In this document: positions 1 to 42,660 of the stretch, piece by piece
Layout: the number at the start of each line of letters is the position of its first letter
Position numbering within the stretch: the first letter of the stretch is position 1
IMG/VR virus record: IMGVR_UViG_3300031857_000054
Span: 32,001 to 96,000 of that record
Direction: 5' to 3' (one strand)
Length of the DNA: 64,000 nt
Source of the DNA: a virus
Position numbers and translations under genes: made by a program
Notes under the pieces: generated by a model
Database searches by the model: none
Seen by the model: only the letters and a program-made list of their open reading frames with translations
Told to the model about the DNA's origin: nothing

Positions 1-335
1 CGTATATAACCCTATCTGTAGTTTATCTATATTAAGTCGTTGTCAGTTATCTTAACCTAATGCAATTTAGAGTGAAGAGATAAAACTATGGGGGGATGAG
101 TCCCCATCTCTCTAATGCATTCATTATCAATTAGTTATGAGAATCAATTCTTTGCTTTTTGCTGTAGTTTAGTGCACAAATATGCAATTCTCAGGCACTT
201 TATTTGGTGTAAAATAGCGATAAATTGCATGAATTAGCTTCAAATAAGTGGCTTATGATTAGAACGTAAGATGTTAGAGCAGTTGCTTTTTTACTCTCTT
301 TGGTTCCTACTGTTATTGTCTCTCTCTATATAGGG

Positions 336-361
336 GAAAACAAAAGCACCCCGAAGGGTGC
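336..361 (-). terminator. Intrinsic terminator (UUCG loop) downstream of the 375-956 gene
   Basis: Minus strand GCACCC-TTCG-GGGTGC-TTTTGTTTT. Confidence 0.75.
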
Positions 362-374
362 TCTTGGTTAACTG

Positions 375-956
375 TTAGAAGGGAACATCGTCCGCATTCG
401 CAGTTTCTTCTGCGGGAACATTCTCTGTAAGTGAAGAGAGGTCCGCTGTAGTACGCTGTGCGACAACCATTACTTTGTCAGCGTAGTCCTTGGTATCAGG
501 GCGCAAGAAGCACTTACGATACACAAAGTTGCCGTGTCCGTCAGTAACACGCTGTTTGGTTTCTCTGTCCAATTTGAAGGCAGATTCACGAACAATGTAG
601 TTACCGTTAGCGTCCTTTTCATTGATGATTTTGTAACTAACGGCTTCGTTAAAGTCAGCAGTTTCAATGATTTGGATACGCACAGCACGACCGAAAACAG
701 ATTCCAAGTTTACAGGGCTGATGCCGTTGTCTTGGAATTTGTAGGGTTCGCTAGAAGAGGTATGCGAAATTTCGTCGGCTTTAATGCCAAAGGCTTTTTC
801 GAATACATCCATAGAGAATGTGTGAATAGCGGTACGCAATAAACGAGATTGCAAACCGAGTGAGAAGGCGGATAGTGAGTCGGATTCTACGCCACATAGA
901 ACGCTAACGGAACCTTTTCCGTTAACCCAAGCCGAATAAGCGTTAACTGTGCTCAT
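375..956 (-). CDS. Putative single-stranded DNA-binding protein or SSB-tail protein
   Basis: 193 aa, beta-rich, acidic tail ending DDVPF like bacterial SSB C-termini; flanked by motif B and a terminator. Confidence 0.45.
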   Translation of the reverse strand: MSTVNAYSAWVNGKGSVSVLCGVESDSLSAFSLGLQSRLLRTAIHTFSMDVFEKAFGIKADEISHTSSSEPYKFQDNGISPVNLESVFGRAVRIQIIETADFNEAVSYKIINEKDANGNYIVRESAFKLDRETKQRVTDGHGNFVYRKCFLRPDTKDYADKVMVVAQRTTADLSSLTENVPAEETANADDVPF

Positions 957-981
957 ACTGAATAGTAATTAGGCAAAAAGG

Positions 982-1006
982 AAAAGAAAAAACCCCCGTA
1001 GGGGGG
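982..1006 (-). terminator. Terminator-like hairpin (UACG loop) fused to motif B
   Basis: Minus strand CCCC-TACG-GGGG-TTTTTTCTTTT. Confidence 0.55.
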
Positions 1007-1324
1007 ATATCGGCCGTTAGGCGTAAGACCGTTAAACGCAAATGACCGAGCGAAGCGAGGTCTTATTGGCTTTGTTTAACTTTTATTTGTCTCAACACGG
1101 GGAATTTTTTGACTAGCCCTGTTTTGTTTAACTTTTTGTTTAACGTTTGGCTTACAAACTTACACAAACTTGTACCTGTTAAGCCGTAATTAGGACGTAA
1201 GATTGTAGTGTAGGCTTATCTTTTTTAGAGAAGAGGTGGTAATAGTAGGAAGGAAAAGAAAAAACGGAGGACGGTGATTAGGACTTAAGATGGTAGTGTA
1301 GGATGTCCTAGAGTACCAAAGGAG

Positions 1325-1612
1325 TCAGTCAGACTCCCTTGGATACACTATGAGACCTTTAGGTGTTAGTTCCGCTAGATCTTCCACAAAGCCGTCAACA
1401 AGTGTCTCTATTAGAGTGTACTTGTCAAAGACCATTACTAGAACTACACCGTGGTGAGTTTTAGTTGCTGTGTAGGATATGGGATGCATGTCTTTTACGA
1501 CATTACTTACGAAGGTTGAGTCATCTGATGTCATCTTCAATGAATCATTGACTTGTTGTCCACATGCTGTACAAGCCATGGACAAGAATAGGATTACGAA
1601 TAATGTTCTCAT
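1325..1612 (-). CDS. Small exported protein (signal peptide or lipoprotein)
   Basis: MRTLFVILFLSMACTACGQQ: basic start, hydrophobic stretch, Cys then Gln; motif B directly upstream. Confidence 0.7.
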   Translation of the reverse strand: MRTLFVILFLSMACTACGQQVNDSLKMTSDDSTFVSNVVKDMHPISYTATKTHHGVVLVMVFDKYTLIETLVDGFVEDLAELTPKGLIVYPRESD

Positions 1613-1620
1613 AGGATAAG

Positions 1621-1646
1621 AAAGAATAAACCCCCCGAAGGGGGTT
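1621..1646 (-). terminator. Intrinsic terminator (UUCG loop) fused to motif B
   Basis: Minus strand AACCCCC-TTCG-GGGGGTT-TATTCTTT. Confidence 0.7.
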
Positions 1647-1650
1647 ATTG

Positions 1651-1998
1651 TTAGTCTTTACGTGGTCTACCCCGTTTGCCTTTAGGCTTGTCACTCTCTT
1701 CAGGTTCTACTGCTACTTCAGGTTCCACGTAATCCCAAGGCTTACCGAAGTACTCGAGATATGTTCTCTCCATTTCACGCAAGGTAGCACCGATGCTTTC
1801 TTGGTATTTGAACTGTTGAGTGAGTGTGAACTCTGACTGAAGGTTGCCGAGCATTTTAGACACGGTTCTTTCTTTGGTCAATTTGTAGAAATCTAATTGA
1901 CGTTCGATAGTGTAGCGCATTTCCATTTCTAGATTCTCTGCGTGTTTTTGAAGCATGTCGTTAATCAACGATTTAGCTTCGGGTGAGTTGGCTCTCAT
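1651..1998 (-). CDS. Hypothetical helical protein with C-terminal AT-hook-like motif
   Basis: 115 aa ending KPKGKRGRPRKD; motif B upstream. Confidence 0.7.
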   Translation of the reverse strand: MRANSPEAKSLINDMLQKHAENLEMEMRYTIERQLDFYKLTKERTVSKMLGNLQSEFTLTQQFKYQESIGATLREMERTYLEYFGKPWDYVEPEVAVEPEESDKPKGKRGRPRKD

Positions 1999-2026
1999 AG
2001 CAGTAGGGAAAAGAAAAAAGAAGTCG

Positions 2027-2305
2027 TTAGACTTCCTTAAACTTTTTTAGTTGGTTAGTAAGAGTAGTCCATTCTATTCTTACTGTTGCCATCACCATCC
2101 TTAATGCTTTACTTTGTCTTTCGTTTCTTTCTTTCTCTTCTTGATTTAGTCCGATGAGTGGATTTTTACCTACTCTTTCCCTTCTTCTGTTTTCCACCTC
2201 AATCCTGTAAGTTTCCTTTTCTACCTTTGCTAATTGTCTACCTAACTTACCCAGAATGTCTTCCACAATCTGTAGCCGTAGTTCTAACATTATTTTTGAT
2301 TCCAT
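2027..2305 (-). CDS. Hypothetical coiled-coil protein
   Basis: 92 aa, K/R/E-rich heptads; motif B 18 nt upstream of ATG. Confidence 0.7.
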   Translation of the reverse strand: MESKIMLELRLQIVEDILGKLGRQLAKVEKETYRIEVENRRRERVGKNPLIGLNQEEKERNERQSKALRMVMATVRIEWTTLTNQLKKFKEV

Positions 2306-2327
2306 ATAATAGGAAAGAAAAAAGGTC

Positions 2328-2516
2328 TTACGACCCTTTCTCTATCAACTCACGGTATTTCCTAGCCTCATGCAGTAGATCTACTACATTGGATAGGAAC
2401 GACCGTTCAAGTCGAGCCAACGCTTTGTGTGAGTCATTCTCTGACTCATTAAGTTCTAATTGGATATCTACCACGATAGACTCCAACGCATCGAATACAT
2501 ATTCATATTTCTCCAT
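2328..2516 (-). CDS. Hypothetical protein, 62 aa (start corrected from 2576 to ATG at 2516)
   Basis: Motif B lies 18 nt before the ATG at 2516 (MEKYEYVF...), as in the other cassettes. Confidence 0.65.
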   Translation of the reverse strand: MEKYEYVFDALESIVVDIQLELNESENDSHKALARLERSFLSNVVDLLHEARKYRELIEKGS

Positions 2517-2583
2517 ACAATGAGAAAGAAAAAACTCTCTATCGTAGTTAGTTCTTAAGATTACAGTGCAGCCCAATCCAAGT

Positions 2584-2603
2584 TAAAAGGGGCTTTCGCC
2601 CCT
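2584..2603 (-). terminator. Intrinsic terminator (GAAA loop)
   Basis: Minus strand AGGGGC-GAAA-GCCCCT-TTT just after the stop at 2608. Confidence 0.7.
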
Positions 2604-2607
2604 GATG

Positions 2608-2727
2608 TTAGAATTTGTTGAACTCGTTGTGCCAGTAATTCTTGTTTGACTTGCTACAACTGTGACCACGACCTGATGCGCAGGACATCAGTCCCACAAT
2701 CACCACTGCTACTATTAGATATCTCAT
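2608..2727 (-). CDS. 39-aa lipoprotein (not in ORF track)
   Basis: MRYLIVAVVIVGLMSCASGRGHSCSKSNKNYWHNEFNKF*; lipobox LMSC; motif B 18 nt upstream, terminator downstream. Confidence 0.7.
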   Translation of the reverse strand: MRYLIVAVVIVGLMSCASGRGHSCSKSNKNYWHNEFNKF

Positions 2728-2734
2728 ACAATAG

Positions 2735-2768
2735 AAAAGAAAAAACTACCCTGATATGCAGGGTAGTT
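2735..2768 (-). terminator. Intrinsic terminator fused to motif B
   Basis: Minus strand AACTACCCTG-CATAT-CAGGGTAGTT-TTTCTTTT, 10-bp stem. Confidence 0.7.
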
Positions 2769-2871
2769 GTAAGGGCGCTACCCCATGTTGTGGTCTTACG
2801 TGAACTAGCTTTACGTTCACCGCACTTTGGCAGATGAGTACATAATAGTAGGATATCCCTACTACTATAAG

Positions 2872-2897
2872 AAAGAAAAAAAGCCCGTGAGGGCTTT
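2872..2897 (-). terminator. Intrinsic terminator fused to motif B
   Basis: Minus strand AAAGCCC-TCAC-GGGCTTT-TTTTCTTT just after the stop at 2901. Confidence 0.65.
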
Positions 2898-2900
2898 CTT

Positions 2901-3074
2901 CTAGGCTTTCTTTCGAGGCCAACTCAATAGTGCAAGTGCCCAGTAACCTAGTGCAATACATGCACTGAAGTACTGAATAGGACTACCAATAGGACACGCT
3001 GTCAAGGCAACCCATGCAGCCATCAAGCCCAATCCTATCAGGAACAAGCTTGGAATCTCTCTGTATTTACTCAT
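2901..3074 (-). CDS. 57-aa two-helix membrane protein (not in ORF track)
   Basis: MSKYREIPSLFLIGLGLMAAWVALTACPIGSPIQYFSACIALGYWALALLSWPRKKA*; motif B 21 nt upstream. Confidence 0.7.
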   Translation of the reverse strand: MSKYREIPSLFLIGLGLMAAWVALTACPIGSPIQYFSACIALGYWALALLSWPRKKA

Positions 3075-3101
3075 AGCACTATGAGAAAGAATAAACCGTC
3101 G

Positions 3102-3332
3102 TTAGACGGTTCTTCTTCTCTTTGTGTGTGCCATATCAATCCAGGTCAGCACTGCAATTGGCACCATCCATCCGAAGGCGAAGACCCACTCTACGACCTT
3201 GGTGAACTCTTCGCCCCAATCCGCGACCATTCCTGCTCTGAAATACACAGTCATGAAGCCACTTGCTACTACCCAAACCAAACCACTGATTGCCGCAATG
3301 GCAATCAATGTACTCTTTATTATTCTATTCAT
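3102..3332 (-). CDS. 76-aa two-helix membrane protein (start corrected to ATG at 3332)
   Basis: MNRIIKSTLIAIAAISGLVWVV...; two hydrophobic segments and a basic tail; motif B 18 nt upstream. Confidence 0.7.
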   Translation of the reverse strand: MNRIIKSTLIAIAAISGLVWVVASGFMTVYFRAGMVADWGEEFTKVVEWVFAFGWMVPIAVLTWIDMAHTKRRRTV

Positions 3333-3358
3333 AGAATAAGAAAGAAAAAACAATAGGA

Positions 3359-3541
3359 CTAATGTCCTATTGCTTTTGACTTACAATAATAGTAGGCATC
3401 CATAGCATCGGATGTTGTTTCATCCCATTCTACTCTTGTCTCTAGTTTAGGGTTCTTCTCGCAGAACTCATTGTAAGTCATTCCTTCTGTGTAGACCAAT
3501 GTCTCATCATTGTACGCTACTTGCGTGATTGTTATCTTCAT
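3359..3541 (-). CDS. Hypothetical protein, 60 aa
   Basis: ORF preceded by motif B at the canonical spacing. Confidence 0.65.
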   Translation of the reverse strand: MKITITQVAYNDETLVYTEGMTYNEFCEKNPKLETRVEWDETTSDAMDAYYYCKSKAIGH

Positions 3542-3549
3542 ACTATGGA

Positions 3550-3577
3550 ACAGAATAAACCTGCCCCGAAGGGCAGG
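3550..3577 (-). terminator. Intrinsic terminator (UUCG loop) fused to motif B
   Basis: Minus strand CCTGCCC-TTCG-GGGCAGG-TTTATTCTGT. Confidence 0.7.
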
Positions 3578-3587
3578 CTCTCTCTCT

Positions 3588-3902
3588 CTAGAACGGCAGC
3601 TCGTCGACCTCTTCTTCTCTTGCCTCGAATGGACTTGCTGCTTCTACTATCATTGGCTCGTCCTTCATCCACCCACCATCTATCCAAGTATAGTAGTAGG
3701 TAGTGTAATCCATACAGTACTCAGGCATGTGTTGGTTCTCGTCTGGATGATATACAGCATACTCTCTCCATGTCCCAACTCGCACGATGCCTCCGTGTCC
3801 TTCCACCTGAACTTCCATCCCACTGACATCAAGACCCATCTCGTTCCACGAAGTTGCCATCTCTTCCGCGACAGCAACTAACTTTTTAAATTTATCTATC
3901 AT
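3588..3902 (-). CDS. Acidic hypothetical protein with SSB-like C-terminal tip
   Basis: 104 aa ending EEEVDELPF; motif B 21 nt upstream. Confidence 0.7.
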   Translation of the reverse strand: MIDKFKKLVAVAEEMATSWNEMGLDVSGMEVQVEGHGGIVRVGTWREYAVYHPDENQHMPEYCMDYTTYYYTWIDGGWMKDEPMIVEAASPFEAREEEVDELPF

Positions 3903-4082
3903 AGCAGGATAGAACAGAATAAACTCCTCTGAAATGACGGGGGGTACCCCGACACTCTATCGGAAGATGGGGGGATCTAATCTAACATCCCCCACCCTCG
4001 TATAGACATCCTAAAATTGTGGGGGTTGAAAATTTTGGGGGTGATTTGGCTGTTGAGGTGCTTGGGACCGAAATAGGTAAGA

Positions 4083-4700
4083 TTAGTTACCAGGAACTAC
4101 ATCGTAGTAGTAGCTATCGGTATCTTCTGATACCCATCTGTCTGATTGGTTCTCTACACTTGGGTGTTCTGTGTCTACTTTTATAGCAGTAGGACTTACA
4201 GGGAAGGGTTTAGTTACCCAGTTAGAATCTTTCCAGAATATGCGGTTATTGGGCATGCATAGTAGGTATCCCTCATCTGCTACTAGTATATGCCCTGCCT
4301 TATAGTCGGAAGGCTCATCACTGTATGGGTTATTGTACCAGTCTACTGTGAACAGGTAATTGGCCCAAATCAAACTTTTGTCTTTAAGGATTACCTGGCA
4401 TCTATGCTCGCTTAGGAAATCATAATGAACTATGCTTACGTTTTCACTAAAGCAGTCCCACAGTTGTTTGAAGTGATAGGGAATGTCATTTTCAGTTTCT
4501 TTTAAGTAGAGTTCACTTATAGGTACTCTAGATCTAAGCATTCCGTAGTCTGTAATAACGTGAAAGGTAAGGATTTTACCTGCTACACTCTGTATGGCAA
4601 AGGCATATACGTTGTCGTATTCTAAATCTTCAGAGTTTTTAGTAAAGTAAGAACGTTTGACTAGAGCCTTAAAGTGTGGGATGTTGGAGTTTAGTTGCAT
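4083..4700 (-). CDS. Conserved phage protein of unknown function (likely start ATG 4700)
   Basis: Motifs QLWDCFS, YLFTVDW and PNNRIFW resemble a family seen in aquatic phages; TAACTTTG (-7-like) just upstream on the minus strand at 4707-4714. Confidence 0.7.
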   Translation of the reverse strand: MQLNSNIPHFKALVKRSYFTKNSEDLEYDNVYAFAIQSVAGKILTFHVITDYGMLRSRVPISELYLKETENDIPYHFKQLWDCFSENVSIVHYDFLSEHRCQVILKDKSLIWANYLFTVDWYNNPYSDEPSDYKAGHILVADEGYLLCMPNNRIFWKDSNWVTKPFPVSPTAIKVDTEHPSVENQSDRWVSEDTDSYYYDVVPGN

Positions 4701-4987
4701 TGTATACAAAGTTAGTAAATATTTATTTGGTGGATTTCTTTATAGGGTAGTTACGATGGAAGTAGAAGTGGTCTTATTTTATCGGTAAAATGCGGTTCCC
4801 TGCGGGGTTCCCTCTATCCTTAGGTGTGAATAACTTCTTCTTTCCTTTCTCTTGATTTTCTACTTACCTTTGGGGGACTACAGGGGGTTAGGGTGACATA
4901 CCAAGTAAACTGTAGTTAAATCCTTGGGTCCTACTAGTAGTTGAGTTTTCCTTATTAAGGGGTAGTGTGCCTTGTTGGTTTTACCTC

Positions 4988-5017
4988 TTGACTTTAATCT
5001 GTAAAGTGATATATTTG
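4988..5017 (+). promoter_or_regulatory. Bacteroidota sigma-A-type promoter
   Basis: TTG-N19-TATATTTG matches the -33/-7 consensus TTG...TAnnTTTG; 18 nt before ATG 5036. Confidence 0.75.
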
Positions 5018-5035
5018 TAGTAAGTATCTTTAACT

Positions 5036-5374
5036 ATGAGAGAAAGGCTTCACTTAATGGGTAATGGCTATGCTGGTGAGCTGGTTAGTCTTATAAAAAG
5101 TAAGAGAAGCGAGAATGTAATGATGAGTCCTTATGACTTTAATGTAATTAGAGCTAAGGTTCACTTACTGGATGGGGTTAGTTTGAGTGGAAAGGAATTG
5201 TACATTGAGTCGGTTGATGGGAACTATACAACGTATATTGGAATTAGTTCTACAATGCCGAATGGCAGTATGTACTTTAGCGATCCATACAGAACAGTAG
5301 CCTATCTGCTTTATGACGGCATAGACGAGAATGGATACTTAGTCACAGAAAATGACGAAAGGCTTTTGATATAA
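5036..5374 (+). CDS. Hypothetical protein, probably tail-fibre associated
   Basis: 112 aa; C-terminal YLVTENDERLLI; stop overlaps the start of the fibre gene. Confidence 0.6.
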   Translation: MRERLHLMGNGYAGELVSLIKSKRSENVMMSPYDFNVIRAKVHLLDGVSLSGKELYIESVDGNYTTYIGISSTMPNGSMYFSDPYRTVAYLLYDGIDENGYLVTENDERLLI

Positions 5375-6675
5375 TGGCAACCAAAGAAACAAGAGTATCC
5401 CAATTACCTCAAGCAGGGTCTTTAGCAAGTACTGATAAAGTAGTTGTGTTGAAGGCTGGTATTACGTCAATTGCTGATGTGGGTACAGTTACCTCTGCTG
5501 CTTTCTTGGGAAAGACTACTGATGCATTGCCTGAAGGAGGAAATCTTTACTTTACAAACAGTAGAGTTAAAGCTAAGGTCTTCCAAATGATTCAAGCTGG
5601 TACTGGTGTTTCTTTTGCAATCAACGATACAGCCGAGACCATTACAATCAGTGCACTAGGAGATGTAAGAAGCGTCAATACCAAAACAGGATTTGTAAGT
5701 TTGAATACAGACGATATCCCTGAGGGCACTACTAATAAATACATTACCAATCCAAGAATTGATGCTAGAGTAGCAGACTTGTTAAAAGCAGGTGCCAATG
5801 TTACTCTGAACTATAACCCAGGATTGGGGACATTGACCATTAATAGTACGGGTAATGTAAGAAGTGTAAACACGTTAACAGGAGATGTTATACTCACTAC
5901 TGATACTATAACTCAGGGAGTTAGTAATTTCTATTATACAGAAACAAAGTTTGATGCTTCGTTAGCTACCAAAACAACAACCAATTTAGCTGAAGGCACT
6001 AACCAATACTTTACTCCAGCTAGAGTTCGCACTACTGTCCTTACGGGATTTAGCAGTGGAGCCGATGCTCAGGTAGAAGGAACTGATACTGTATTACAGG
6101 GTTTTGGTAAACTACAGACTCAAGTTAGTTCTGCTAAAAACACAACAAACGCACACATAGCAAATACGTCTAATCCTCACAACGTTACTAAGGCACAGGT
6201 AGGATTGGATAACGTACCTAACGTAAATGCTACTGTTGCTTCAAACATAACAAGTGGATTACTTCCAGATGCGAGACTATCGGCAAACGTAACCCAACAA
6301 GGAAATACGTTTAATGGAGTAAACCAATTAGTTAGATTAGACGGATCAGGAAAGCTTCCTGCAATTGATGGTTCTCAGTTGACAGGATTGATTTCTCAAA
6401 TCGCTAATCTTTCTGACGTTCAACTTACTAGTTTACAGATAGGACAAAGCTTATCTTATAACGGAACAAAGTGGGTCAACTCTGCTGTGACGGCAACTGT
6501 ACGACACGATTATCAAGGAGTGTATTCTTACGTAGGAAGAGCACCTCAGTTAAGTTCTGAAGGAGCAAACGTTTGGAAAATAACAAGAATTCAAGTCCTA
6601 ACAGATGGTAACGTACTAATCACCCAAGCATTGAGTGTGTCTTGGAGTGGCAGATTAACACATACATATTCATAA
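5374..6675 (+). CDS. Tail or head fibre protein
   Basis: Four TTDxLxEGxNxYFT-like repeats, two VRSVNxxTGxVxL repeats and HIANTSNPHNVTKAQVGL, all typical of phage fibre shafts. Confidence 0.75.
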   Translation: MATKETRVSQLPQAGSLASTDKVVVLKAGITSIADVGTVTSAAFLGKTTDALPEGGNLYFTNSRVKAKVFQMIQAGTGVSFAINDTAETITISALGDVRSVNTKTGFVSLNTDDIPEGTTNKYITNPRIDARVADLLKAGANVTLNYNPGLGTLTINSTGNVRSVNTLTGDVILTTDTITQGVSNFYYTETKFDASLATKTTTNLAEGTNQYFTPARVRTTVLTGFSSGADAQVEGTDTVLQGFGKLQTQVSSAKNTTNAHIANTSNPHNVTKAQVGLDNVPNVNATVASNITSGLLPDARLSANVTQQGNTFNGVNQLVRLDGSGKLPAIDGSQLTGLISQIANLSDVQLTSLQIGQSLSYNGTKWVNSAVTATVRHDYQGVYSYVGRAPQLSSEGANVWKITRIQVLTDGNVLITQALSVSWSGRLTHTYS

Positions 6676-8781: not shown

Positions 8782-10547
8782 TGGCACTAAGAGCAGCAAT
8801 AGCATCTGGTAACTGGTCAAACCCAGCAACGTGGAATGGAGGAGTTCTTCCTGGCCCAGGAGATATAGTAGCGTCAAATAACTTCACAGTTACAATAGAT
8901 CAAAATATTAATGTTGATACTTTAACAAACACAGCACAAAGTCTAATTACAGCTGTTCCTTTAATGACTTCTAATACAACACCAAGTGGTATTGTCACAG
9001 GGTTAGGAGGAACAAGTGCTTACATTGCTTTTAATGGGTCAGTCTCACAAAACAGTTTTACCAATGCGAATCCAGGTGACTTTTTTGGATATGAATTTAC
9101 TTCACCAAAAGCAATTGACATGTTTACTTTTGTTTTGGGAGGAAGTATCACAACTAATATCTCTTTCCAAAGTTGGGATGGTTCTGCTTGGATTACTTTA
9201 TATACTGCTGTACTTGCAGGTGTAAACACATTTACCAGTCCTCTTATAGGCAATAGTGTTGCTTACATAAAATACAGGTTTTTAATAAATACCACTGCTA
9301 CTTTACAAATGAGGGAAACTTATTTGTATGAGTATTTATCAACTACTGCAGCAGTAGCTGGCGGTGGATTTATTTTAAATAGTGGAATCACAGTAACTAC
9401 TACAGGGGAAACAGGACTATCTGCTGGGTCTACTGACTTAATTACTTTTTCAAGTAGTGGCACGGCAACAATAAATTGTGGTACTGGAAATATACTAAGA
9501 CCGACATCTGCTTCAGCTATTTCTACAATAAAGGTAACAGGAGGAGGTACGTTAAGTATTACAGGAAATTTAGAACCAGGTTCAACGAATGGTACTAGCA
9601 GGATCCTACATATTACAACAACAGCAGGAGCAGTTGTTAACGTGACAGGAAGAGTATATGGTGGAAATTCAAACGGTATTTTAACAGACGTAAGTTGTAC
9701 ATTAAATGTCATTGGCAATGTACTTGGAACTAATACTAACGGACCAGTAGCAAGTATTTGGTTTGGTGCAGGAGGCACATTGAATGTTACAGGAAATATT
9801 TATGGAAGCGAAGGATTTAACAACAATGGTTACGGAATTTATTTTAATATAGGCAATCTTAATATTACTGGAAACGTATATGGTGGTGAAAACCAAGGAG
9901 TGAATGATTGGGGAATACAAATAGTAGGGATTGCAACTGTCTATATTACAGGTAATCTTTTTTCAGGAAACTCTCCTAGCACAAATAATTTTCCAGCAAT
10001 AAACTGTACTACCGCCTCTTACATAAATCAAGTAGGAGCTATCTATGCAGGAAGAAACTCTGTCGGTTTTGTCTCTTCAAGTAGTACTGCTATAAACCTA
10101 TTAACAGGACCTTTTGTATGTAATGAGTATGGATTCTTTCCTTACCAAGTTGTAAGAATGCATTTAATACCTAGTACAAGTTCTTATTTTGAATTTAGAG
10201 ACGAGACAACCAATGGTGCAATACAACCTGGCGCTATTGCACCTGCTACTCGTTTAGTATCTCCTGCAACTTTAGTAGATAACTTAGCAGTTTCTGATGT
10301 GCGGTTTGGTACTACCTACGCTTTAGGTACATTGACTGGGACTTTGAGAATGCCTAGTGCAAACCAAGTAACCTTTGGAATTCCTGTAGATAATACTTTT
10401 GGAAACGCAGTATTGACCGCTGCTTCTGTTTGGGATTATCTAGTATCAAACATTACAGTAGAGAACAGTATAGGAATGAGACTAAAGAACGTAGCTACTC
10501 CTCAAAGTGTTGGAGAACAGCTAGAAGCTTTTCTAAGATTAGATTAA
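8781..10547 (+). CDS. Tail spike / receptor-binding protein, paralog 2
   Basis: Same architecture as 6991-8781 with near-identical N-terminus and conserved C-terminal part. Confidence 0.65.
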   Translation: MALRAAIASGNWSNPATWNGGVLPGPGDIVASNNFTVTIDQNINVDTLTNTAQSLITAVPLMTSNTTPSGIVTGLGGTSAYIAFNGSVSQNSFTNANPGDFFGYEFTSPKAIDMFTFVLGGSITTNISFQSWDGSAWITLYTAVLAGVNTFTSPLIGNSVAYIKYRFLINTTATLQMRETYLYEYLSTTAAVAGGGFILNSGITVTTTGETGLSAGSTDLITFSSSGTATINCGTGNILRPTSASAISTIKVTGGGTLSITGNLEPGSTNGTSRILHITTTAGAVVNVTGRVYGGNSNGILTDVSCTLNVIGNVLGTNTNGPVASIWFGAGGTLNVTGNIYGSEGFNNNGYGIYFNIGNLNITGNVYGGENQGVNDWGIQIVGIATVYITGNLFSGNSPSTNNFPAINCTTASYINQVGAIYAGRNSVGFVSSSSTAINLLTGPFVCNEYGFFPYQVVRMHLIPSTSSYFEFRDETTNGAIQPGAIAPATRLVSPATLVDNLAVSDVRFGTTYALGTLTGTLRMPSANQVTFGIPVDNTFGNAVLTAASVWDYLVSNITVENSIGMRLKNVATPQSVGEQLEAFLRLD

Positions 10548-10570: not shown

Positions 10571-10600
10571 TTGACTTATTTTTTCAATAGTTTATTTTTG
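10571..10600 (+). promoter_or_regulatory. Bacteroidota sigma-A-type promoter of the lysis/envelope operon
   Basis: TTG-N19-TATTTTTG. Confidence 0.7.
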
Positions 10601-18366: not shown

Positions 18367-18396
18367 TTGACTTTTTATATTAGGATAGTATATTTG
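18367..18396 (+). promoter_or_regulatory. Bacteroidota sigma-A-type promoter
   Basis: TTG-N19-TATATTTG. Confidence 0.75.
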
Positions 18397-24922: not shown

Positions 24923-24952
24923 TTGTGTTAATTTTTTAATAGGTTAACTTTG
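24923..24952 (+). promoter_or_regulatory. Bacteroidota sigma-A-type promoter of the capsid operon
   Basis: TTG-N19-TAACTTTG. Confidence 0.7.
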
Positions 24953-34756: not shown

Positions 34757-34787
34757 TTGACATTAGTAACAGTTTAAATTATATTTG
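34757..34787 (+). promoter_or_regulatory. Bacteroidota sigma-A-type promoter
   Basis: TTG-N20-TATATTTG. Confidence 0.7.
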
Positions 34788-42286: not shown

Positions 42287-42660
42287 CACCAGAAGTAATT
42301 AGCTCTATGAGACCTGAAGTGTACTTAGGGCAATTTTTCCAATCGAGAGATATCATACACCTTGCACATCTCCAAACAACTTCATACTCAGAGCATGAAG
42401 CTTTAAACAAATACTATGATGGCCTACTTGGTCTTCTAGATAGCATGATTGAGTCTTACTTTGGCTGTATCGGAAAAAGAGTCAATATTAAGATTCCTGC
42501 ATCTGATTACATAAATGCAGAAACACATCTAAAACAGTTTAAAGAATATGTCAAGAAACATCGCGGAGTTCTAGGTATGGACAGGACAGATGTACAGAAT
42601 ATTTTAGATGAAATAATCGCTTTGATTAATAAGACATTATATTTGCTTAGCTTAACTTAA
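42283..42660 (+). CDS. Ferritin/Dps-like four-helix protein (DUF5856-like)
   Basis: HLAHLQTTSYSEHEALNKYYD...NILDEI...YLLSL. Confidence 0.7.
   Translation: MTPEVISSMRPEVYLGQFFQSRDIIHLAHLQTTSYSEHEALNKYYDGLLGLLDSMIESYFGCIGKRVNIKIPASDYINAETHLKQFKEYVKKHRGVLGMDRTDVQNILDEIIALINKTLYLLSLT

Follow-up and report, generated by a model that had tools for sequence, protein, structure and literature searches.

The early promoters P1-P3 of coliphage N4 are read by its virion RNA polymerase and rely on a DNA hairpin of the template strand that has a 3-nt loop and conserved bases close to +1. The T4-type phages carry promoter-early stem-loops (PeSLs), composites of a terminator stem-loop and a promoter that are found between small ORFans of a hyperplastic early region (PMC2839356, PMC4122927). 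The promoter part of a PeSL has the sigma-70 consensus -35/-10 elements and an AT-rich upstream part and gives leadered mRNAs, and homologous exchange at the repeat has been proposed (PMC2839356). A further trait of the PeSL cassettes is that mini-circles arise through recombination between the flanking elements. In the Thermus phage P23-45, the 14 pre-early promoters of the virion RNA polymerase (RNAP) share one motif (10.1101/2022.12.01.518664). In promoter-coupled terminators, the stem-loop takes the place of the -35 element, the -10 element directly follows the T-tract, and the transcription start site (TSS) lies 8-11 bp past the termination site (10.64898/2026.08.19.745784). Here we analyse an array of small minus-strand genes in a window of 64,000 nucleotides, which comprises bases 32001-96000 of a single virus record of 107,017 bp (IMGVR_UViG_3300031857_000054; window position 1 is genome position 32001). 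The element in question is an 18-nt pyrimidine-rich box that begins with a T-run, follows directly on a hairpin in most copies, and in most cassettes ends at or 3 nt before the start codon of the next gene.

In the reading that we put forward, the hairpin and the T-run would form the intrinsic terminator or attenuator of the upstream unit, and the 18-nt box, including the T-run, would be a phage-specific promoter with the RNA starting at the purine directly after the box. In most cassettes the mRNA would be leaderless, the purine being the A of the ATG, or would have a 3-nt leader (5'-GCU-AUG), and a few copies would head leaders of 15-40 nt or non-coding RNAs. Because the same 18-20 nt are present at every junction, relatives would also cross over there by homologous recombination, and would in this way acquire, lose, or relocate cassettes. 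This combination of terminator, start box, and recombination junction has, in our opinion, about an even chance of being correct. Within it, we infer the start of the RNA at the purine and the identity of the enzyme that reads the box.

The junctions have a common anatomy, the box is restricted to one strand and one arm of the genome, it has a fixed pyrimidine/purine point, the hairpins show compensatory changes, and the breakpoints between relatives focus on the box. To find copies, TTTWTTCTKTYC was searched with at most one mismatch on both strands, in the window and then in the whole 107-kb genome, and the window count was compared with shuffled sequences. The window contains 19 matches versus 8.7 +/- 3.3 in shuffles, and 12 of these 19 are on the minus strand at 981-3923. 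In terms of full copies there are 12 on the minus strand at window 975-3923, and one degenerate copy is located near 347. Genome-wide, 17 minus-strand copies were found at genome 29353-35923 (window -2647 to 3923), four of them directly left of the window, and the same search found no copies on the plus strand of this range. Two more copies at genome 21283 and 17527 stand at operon heads in larger gaps of the replication arm, and one is inside a rightward gene, probably by chance. The sequence-only reading of this DNA had described 13 cassettes at 330-3924 with the motif in front of each gene. The array is indeed there and has 13 copies on the minus strand, but it continues for about 2.6 kb left of the window start, and only ten protein genes are headed by a copy: those at 2881 and 1264 are not followed by an open reading frame (ORF), and the one near 347 is a degenerate terminator tail without a gene.

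The distance between the box and the start codon is nearly constant. Nine T-runs were said to start exactly 18 or 21 nt before an ATG in TATG context, and this holds for every one of them, with six copies at 18 nt and three at 21 nt. When the genome is pooled with three relatives sharing the box (L001, L009, and L084), the TTCT core is 14 nt from the ATG in 24 cases and 17 nt in 14 cases, distances of 16 and 18 nt occur once each, and a minority is at 29-37 nt. For a weight matrix, 55 distinct copies were aligned at a point 14 nt past the core, and the positions forced by the search were set apart. The unforced positions that are conserved are T at -18 and -17, a pyrimidine (Y) at -6, T at -4 (53/55), Y at -1 (52/55), a purine (R) at +1 (52/55), and Y at +2 (53/55), and the last four stay conserved in copies without an ATG. 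C at -12 is invariant in the 55 copies, but falls inside the search pattern. The complete 18-nt pattern is T from -18 to -13, C at -12, T from -11 to -9, Y from -8 to -6, T at -4, and Y at -1, with only pyrimidines from -18 to -6. In the short class, the A of the ATG provides the purine at +1; in the class with three additional nucleotides (+3 class), it is the first base of GCT or ACT, and copies with a long leader or without an ORF have A or G. Because the purine is kept where there is no ATG, the box ends at a fixed pyrimidine/purine step that is not set by the start codon. The additional triplet of the +3 class preserves the T-N-N-T phasing, and the RNA of this class might start either with the G of GCT or with the A of its ATG. 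As a separate matter, an antisense partner RNA for the box was considered, but the scan for the pattern on the opposite strand gave only a few matches, which were judged uninformative.

The base composition of these leaders is also distinct. The 18 nt before the ATG contain 75% pyrimidines in the array compared to 40-44% in the other 92 genes, which have 46-49% A at these positions, in agreement with the contrast between pyrimidine-rich and A-rich leaders that had been noticed before. In Flavobacterium johnsoniae, initiation is favoured by A at -3, -6, -12, and -13 (PMC6847099); according to the weight matrix the short-class cassettes have pyrimidines at these four positions. The 18-nt box thus looks unlike a normal host leader, as would be expected if it were not transcribed together with the gene.

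A hairpin abuts about ten of the 13 array copies, which is more than the six counted in the sequence-only reading, and in the four genomes a stable hairpin with a T-run is present upstream of about 46 of the 58 boxes. The window region 1-5400 has 25 terminator-like sites compared to 3.8 +/- 1.9 in shuffles, whereas only about three sites with a hairpin and a T-run are present on the 70-kb rightward arm. The loops on the sense strand are mostly 4 nt long; they are UUCG in 12 of 58 cases (usually closed by C-G), TAAC in seven, and of the GNRA type in several. Orthologous stems co-change on both sides, e.g. CTGCCC/GGGCAG versus CTACCC/GGGTAG. Such loops and compensations are typical of RNA terminators or stabilisers. 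The fold energies of the sense and antisense strands do not differ significantly (p = 0.17), and energy alone does therefore not settle the strand choice. The copies at 2534, 1264, and -178 have no abutting hairpin and the copy at 3923 has its hairpin 8 nt away. Because three or four copies lack an abutting hairpin, the T-run should be more than the tail of a terminator. Two further hairpins are mentioned for completeness. The hairpin GACG/GGGG-TACCCC-CGTC before the 104-aa gene (3932-3957) is single-copy in this genome and is kept in the box-less L002, L012, and L014. The last terminator of the leftward arm is at genome 2271-2310 on the minus strand, some 29.7 kb to the left of the window start, and consists of AGGGGGAT-ttat-ATCCCCCT followed by TTATTTTTTTCTATATT.

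According to the ORF layout, the leftward, minus-strand genes extend from genome position ~36,700 to 2,350 and the rightward genes from 37,036 to the end, so that the array is at the head of the leftward arm and adjoins the divergence point. The structural genes and three giant proteins are encoded on the rightward arm; a terminal repeat was looked for in the record and none was found. A pattern scan revealed at least seven promoters of the form TTGAC-N16/17-TAnnTTTG on the plus arm, with A-rich leaders of 18-38 nt. TAnnTTTG is the -7 box of the Bacteroidota sigma-A (PMC9723704, PMC6847099), to which the plus-arm sites add a -35-like TTGAC. These sites would fit a Bacteroidota host and the host RNAP as the enzyme that transcribes middle and late genes, and they recall the middle promoters of phage phi14:2, which are host-type (10.1101/2020.03.07.982082). 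At the array junctions, the pattern scans found no sigma-70-like, Bacteroidota sigma-A, or TAnnTTTG promoter, as had been claimed for the host consensus, and sigma-70-like sites are not enriched in window 1-5400 (8 versus 11.3 in shuffles). One unit per gene with a near-leaderless mRNA would be consistent with the pyrimidine/purine step 18 nt after the start of the T-run, with the composition and the hairpins, and with the absence of a host promoter.

Only the first leftward gene has a host-type box, TAACTTTG at 4714, 6 nt upstream of its ATG. This gene is ferredoxin-like (phrog_3704), and its TAnnTTTG box is found at window 4700-4714 on the minus strand, 3-6 nt before the ATG. The same short spacing is present in L009, L012, and L014, just before their position 10001. 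As the -7 box of flavobacteria extends from -12 to -5 (PMC9723704), the ferredoxin-like gene is predicted to be transcribed by the host RNAP into an mRNA that is leaderless or has a leader of 1-2 nt.

The ferredoxin-like neighbour is a widespread phage auxiliary gene and therefore a poor anchor, and most of its 80 loci were uninformative. Relatives were taken via the helicase just beyond the array, the alignment of which gave 80 syntenic relatives. The box is present only in the closest of these, namely in L001/L081, L084 (helicase identity of 78%), and L009. L002 has the variant box TTTTCTCTTCTCTT with unchanged geometry towards the ATG. Relatives whose helicases are at most 60% identical have A-rich leaders, fewer hairpins, and no motif at a fixed distance. 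The genome behind L084, an independent and complete relative of 122 kb, has ten exact copies of the 12-mer, always on the same strand and nine of them within 4 kb. The exact pattern of box plus ATG was found in 24 of 2.9 million IMG/VR contigs, with arrays only in the known relatives; the remaining matches are chance matches or antisense matches to coding sequence.

Protein clustering of the four genomes showed conserved backbone genes between which differing cassettes have been inserted or replaced, and some cassette families occupy different array positions in different genomes. In the comparison with the three relatives, the nucleotide homology blocks have 67 internal starts, of which 28 fall 3-8 nt ahead of the core, and 62 ends, of which 28 fall 4-21 nt past the start of the core. 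This corresponds to 42-45% of the breakpoints in the box compared to 5-6% under a uniform null, or about eight times chance. For example, cassette family 20 has different neighbours in L001 and L084, and the homology reaches from the first T of one box into the next. The hairpin accompanies the gene upstream of it, and the junction that the cassettes share is the box. These comparisons support a role of the box as recombination or gene-exchange junction, for which homologous exchange at the repeated box would be the simplest mechanism. The sequence-only reading had suggested gene shuffling at the repeats and a comparison of the cassette content among relatives. The suggestion is supported by the mosaic content, by breakpoints that are related to the motif, and by one cassette that is found at two array positions. 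No match to the tyrosine recombinase family PF00589 was found in the phage genome. Integron attC cassettes were considered and ruled out, as there is no integrase and the stems are short and terminator-like and not attC-like.

The presumed virion RNAP of this phage is an ORF of 2498 aa that starts at window 57707 and extends to 65203, past the window end, with the motif DYDID at residue 1534. Its centre matches giant proteins of gut crAss-like phages (tblastn E-values of 2e-19 to 2e-9, 20-26% identity), several of which are annotated as 'putative RNA polymerase'; sequence searches against the PDB gave no meaningful match. Because the ORF matches crAss-like polymerases, the phage is crAss-like. 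The polymerase of phi14:2 has DFDID in place of DYDID. Since the early genes of phi14:2 are rifampicin-resistant (10.1101/2020.03.07.982082) and the RNAP of P23-45 reads a repeated motif, the injected polymerase is the leading candidate for reading the box, although we infer this purely by analogy. In its specific form, the claim would make the box the promoter that the crAss-like virion RNAP uses in this lineage, with the start at the purine, leaderless mRNAs, and a stop at the overlapping hairpin and T-run. This is possible, but we would not lean towards it. If true, it would be the first defined promoter for the crAss-like virion polymerase family, for which the literature on the phi14:2 polymerase does not define a promoter consensus (10.1101/2020.03.07.982082).

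Several observations weigh against the box as start signal of near-leaderless mRNAs, its reading by the virion RNAP, or its part in exchange. Leaderless initiation would be unusual on an mRNA with a 3-nt leader, and leaderless mRNAs are rare in flavobacteria, accounting for 5.5% in F. psychrophilum (PMC9723704). The early transcripts of phi14:2, which are made by its virion RNAP, showed no upstream motif in common (10.1101/2020.03.07.982082). That the box is so narrowly distributed also speaks against the virion RNAP as its reader: the relatives with at most 60% helicase identity keep the polymerase family and an array of small genes but lack the box, which can therefore not be a general crAss-like signal. 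In addition, box-like tails without a gene after them are found at the terminator at genome 2291 and near window 347, and the 5' half of the box may represent only the local consensus of U-tracts. Concerning the exchange, the intergenic DNA consists almost entirely of hairpin and box, so that any gene-wise exchange would map near the box.

Instead of separate units, the array could be read as one or a few long transcripts from the TAACTTTG box (4714) and perhaps from motif A, a second repeated motif described below. The box would then act in the RNA, either as an endonuclease site at the pyrimidine/purine step, where a cut would set leaderless mRNAs free, or as an unusual ribosome-loading tract, and the hairpins would be attenuators or 3' stabilisers. 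The fixed step suits cleavage as well as a start, the sense-strand UUCG and GNRA loops indicate that the hairpins act in RNA, and both the host-type -7 box 6 nt before the first ATG of the minus arm and the five exact copies of motif A in the array could provide the promoters. However, it is hard to see how the distal genes would be reached, because ten or more serial sites with hairpin and T-run would leave them little read-through. We know of no nuclease with specificity for such a pyrimidine/purine box, and the box cannot be only a translation signal because some copies head non-coding units. It also has pyrimidines where leadered initiation in Bacteroidota favours A (PMC6847099), and long transcripts seem rather unlikely to us. 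Alternatively, the box might have no start function at all and be a terminator U-tract and junction that has been homogenised by recombination (concerted evolution), with a distance to the ATG that is inherited and not selected. This would explain why the breakpoints centre on the box, why cassettes shift as box-to-box units, why each genome has a uniform box that changes from lineage to lineage, as in L002 with its TTTTCTCTTCTCTT, and why terminators without a following gene have box-like tails. It would not explain why the ATG has been kept at +1 or +4 in more than 30 unrelated gene families, nor why, even without an ATG, there is conservation of T-4, Y-1, and R+1, which lie 3' of any plausible U-tract. 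Hairpin-less copies exist, and most array genes would be left without a promoter, and we consider concerted evolution as the sole cause to be quite improbable.

Two further explanations accept the junction as a promoter but assign it differently. The host RNAP might read the box with the help of a specificity factor that is either alternative or supplied by the phage, or the junction might be a promoter-coupled terminator, a type reported to be widespread in bacteria (10.64898/2026.08.19.745784). Following the T-run, the hexamer TATTGT, TATTAT, TATCCT, or CATAGT resembles TAnnnT, but it abuts the ATG, so that the geometry of sigma-70 or sigma-A would start the RNA inside the ORF. Moreover, the box has no TAnnTTTG while the plus arm has clear host-type promoters, and we regard the host RNAP as a highly improbable reader. 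Finally, the hairpins could act as template-strand DNA hairpins and thus as N4-like promoters for the virion RNAP. Most boxes are preceded by a hairpin, and in vitro the virion RNAP of phi14:2 transcribes only single-stranded or denatured DNA (10.1101/2020.03.07.982082). The non-significant difference in fold energy leaves the strand unsettled, but loops of mostly 4 nt with sense-strand UUCG and GNRA sequences, unconserved stem sequences, three or four boxes without a hairpin, and a stem that ends 18 nt before the fixed purine make N4-like hairpins extremely unlikely. The terminator with a phage-specific start box as proposed above yields a compact 18-nt candidate that has a predicted start base, an invariant C-12, and a T-4 kept in 53 of 55 copies and that can serve as template for promoter tests.

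The features of the array are listed in Table 1. The array ORFs evolve as genes, as the differences between orthologues in the relatives are distributed as 310/213/634 over the codon positions 1/2/3. Ten proteins, nine from the array (excluding the product of the 39-aa gene at 2608-2727) and the ferredoxin-like neighbour, were compared with PHROGs. Eight array proteins had no match at all, and one had only a weak match of unknown function. A megablast search with the region found no match in the phage collection, and Rfam gave none for window 1-5400 at E <= 1. The 118-nt non-coding unit (2746-2863) has a core of ~50 nt that is almost unchanged in L084, with compensating changes in the hairpins on either side; the unit folds with a minimum free energy of -35.7 kcal/mol (z = -2.1). 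The 254-nt non-coding unit (993-1246) may be compared with phi14:2, which has early intergenic regions with high transcription (10.1101/2020.03.07.982082). Motif A has the sequence ATCTTA[AC]G-NN-CTAA[CT], usually after ACTAC or CTACA. It is found 12-24 nt upstream of a hairpin-less box in three cases, and related copies are present in L001, L009, and L084. It might be a second class of promoter or an operator.

Table 1. Features of the array and host-type promoters of the plus arm (window coordinates; boxes and hairpins as discussed in the text).
Feature	Position	Strand	Remarks
Box 1, TTTATTCTGTTCTATCCT	3906..3923	minus	+1 G 3905, ATG 3902; conserved hairpin 3932-3957 is 8 nt upstream, not abutting
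104-aa ORFan gene	3588..3902	minus	kept in L001, L009, L084
Terminator-type hairpin 3557-3580 and box 2 (3542-3559)	3542..3580	minus	C(UUCG)G loop; ATG 3541 = +1
60-aa gene	3359..3541	minus	
Hairpin 3348-3375 and box 3 (3333-3350)	3333..3375	minus	ATG 3332 = +1
76-aa gene	3102..3332	minus	
Hairpin 3093-3112 and box 4 (3078-3095)	3078..3112	minus	+1 G 3077, ATG 3074
57-aa gene	2901..3074	minus	different gene in its place in L001
Hairpin 2879-2898 and box 5 (2864-2881)	2864..2898	minus	+1 A 2863; no ORF after
Non-coding unit, 118 nt	2746..2863	minus	between box 5 and next terminator; candidate small RNA
Hairpin 2744-2768 and box 6 (2728-2745)	2728..2768	minus	ATG 2727 = +1
39-aa gene	2608..2727	minus	kept in 4/4 genomes
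GNRA-loop hairpin	2588-2603	minus	after 39-aa gene, upstream of box 7
Box 7, no abutting hairpin	2517..2534	minus	motif A 2547-2561 upstream; ATG 2516 = +1
62-aa gene	2328..2516	minus	
Hairpin 2321-2338 and box 8 (2306-2323)	2306..2338	minus	GUAA loop; ATG 2305 = +1
92-aa gene	2027..2305	minus	unique to this genome among the four compared
Hairpin 2017-2038 and box 9 (2002-2019)	2002..2038	minus	+1 G 2001, ATG 1998
115-aa gene	1651..1998	minus	
Hairpin 1629-1646 and box 10 (1613-1630)	1613..1646	minus	C(UUCG)G loop; ATG 1612 = +1
95-aa gene	1325..1612	minus	
Box 11, no hairpin	1247..1264	minus	motif A 1277-1291 upstream; +1 A 1246; no ORF after
Non-coding unit, 254 nt	993..1246	minus	motif A 1189-1203; three GTTAAACAAA repeats; terminal hairpin 993-1006
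Box 12	975..992	minus	+1 G 974, 18-nt leader, ATG 956
193-aa gene	375..956	minus	
Terminator-type hairpin and degenerate box-like tail CTTTTGTTTTCCCCTATATAG	325..362	minus	C(UUCG)G loop; no gene after
Motif A, five exact copies	2547-2561, 1277-1291, 1189-1203, 258-272, ~139 nt left of window	minus	array region only
Host-type promoters TTGAC-N16/17-TAnnTTTG	4988-5017, 10571-10600, 18367-18396, 24923-24952, 34758-34787, 42620-42645	plus	heading rightward operons; A-rich leaders of 18-30 nt

Compared with the known systems, the hairpin adjoining the start signal of the first genes and the injected polymerase are reminiscent of N4. In contrast to N4, the loops mostly have 4 nt, the stems are unconserved and end at -18, and the hairpins look like sense-strand RNA terminators that are dispensable at some copies. 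With the promoter-coupled terminators the array shares that the T-tract DNA would double as part of the next promoter, with termination and start sites predicted to be about 10 bp apart. Those elements are of the host sigma-70 type, however, and their geometry does not fit the array, where the TAnnnT-like hexamer abuts the ATG or the fixed purine. In P23-45, as here, there are many small genes, expressed first in that phage, each with one conserved non-host motif; the motif is limited to relatives of the lineage, and the terminators at this end of the genome carry a conserved motif as well (10.1101/2022.12.01.518664). The motif of P23-45 has an AT-rich sequence and was linked to mapped TSSs and ChIP-seq data, whereas the box is pyrimidine-rich and its start base is predicted, and the P23-45 polymerase (gp96) belongs to another lineage.

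The closest parallel in organisation is with the PeSLs. As in the T4-type phages, a stable stem-loop, presumably with terminator function, is part of a repeated composite element between small ORFans in a hyperplastic region. Here, too, the indel and replacement breakpoints of close relatives fall into the element, as seen in the mosaic map, and cassettes move as flanked units, as seen in the box-to-box translocation. However, the array junctions have no host sigma-70 promoter with an AT-rich upstream region. In its place there is an 18-nt pyrimidine box without host-type hexamers that overlaps the T-run of the terminator and reaches up to the ATG or to 3 nt from it, and the phage belongs to the crAss-like order and should infect a host of another phylum. 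Because the host-consensus promoter is missing, we do not count the array as a member of the PeSLs, but functionally it is an analogue of the PeSL cassettes. It shows how exchange at a regulatory junction that is short and repeated reshapes the ORFan-rich early region of these phages, and the crAss-like phages would have arrived at the same exchange logic as the T4-type phages independently and with a different signal.

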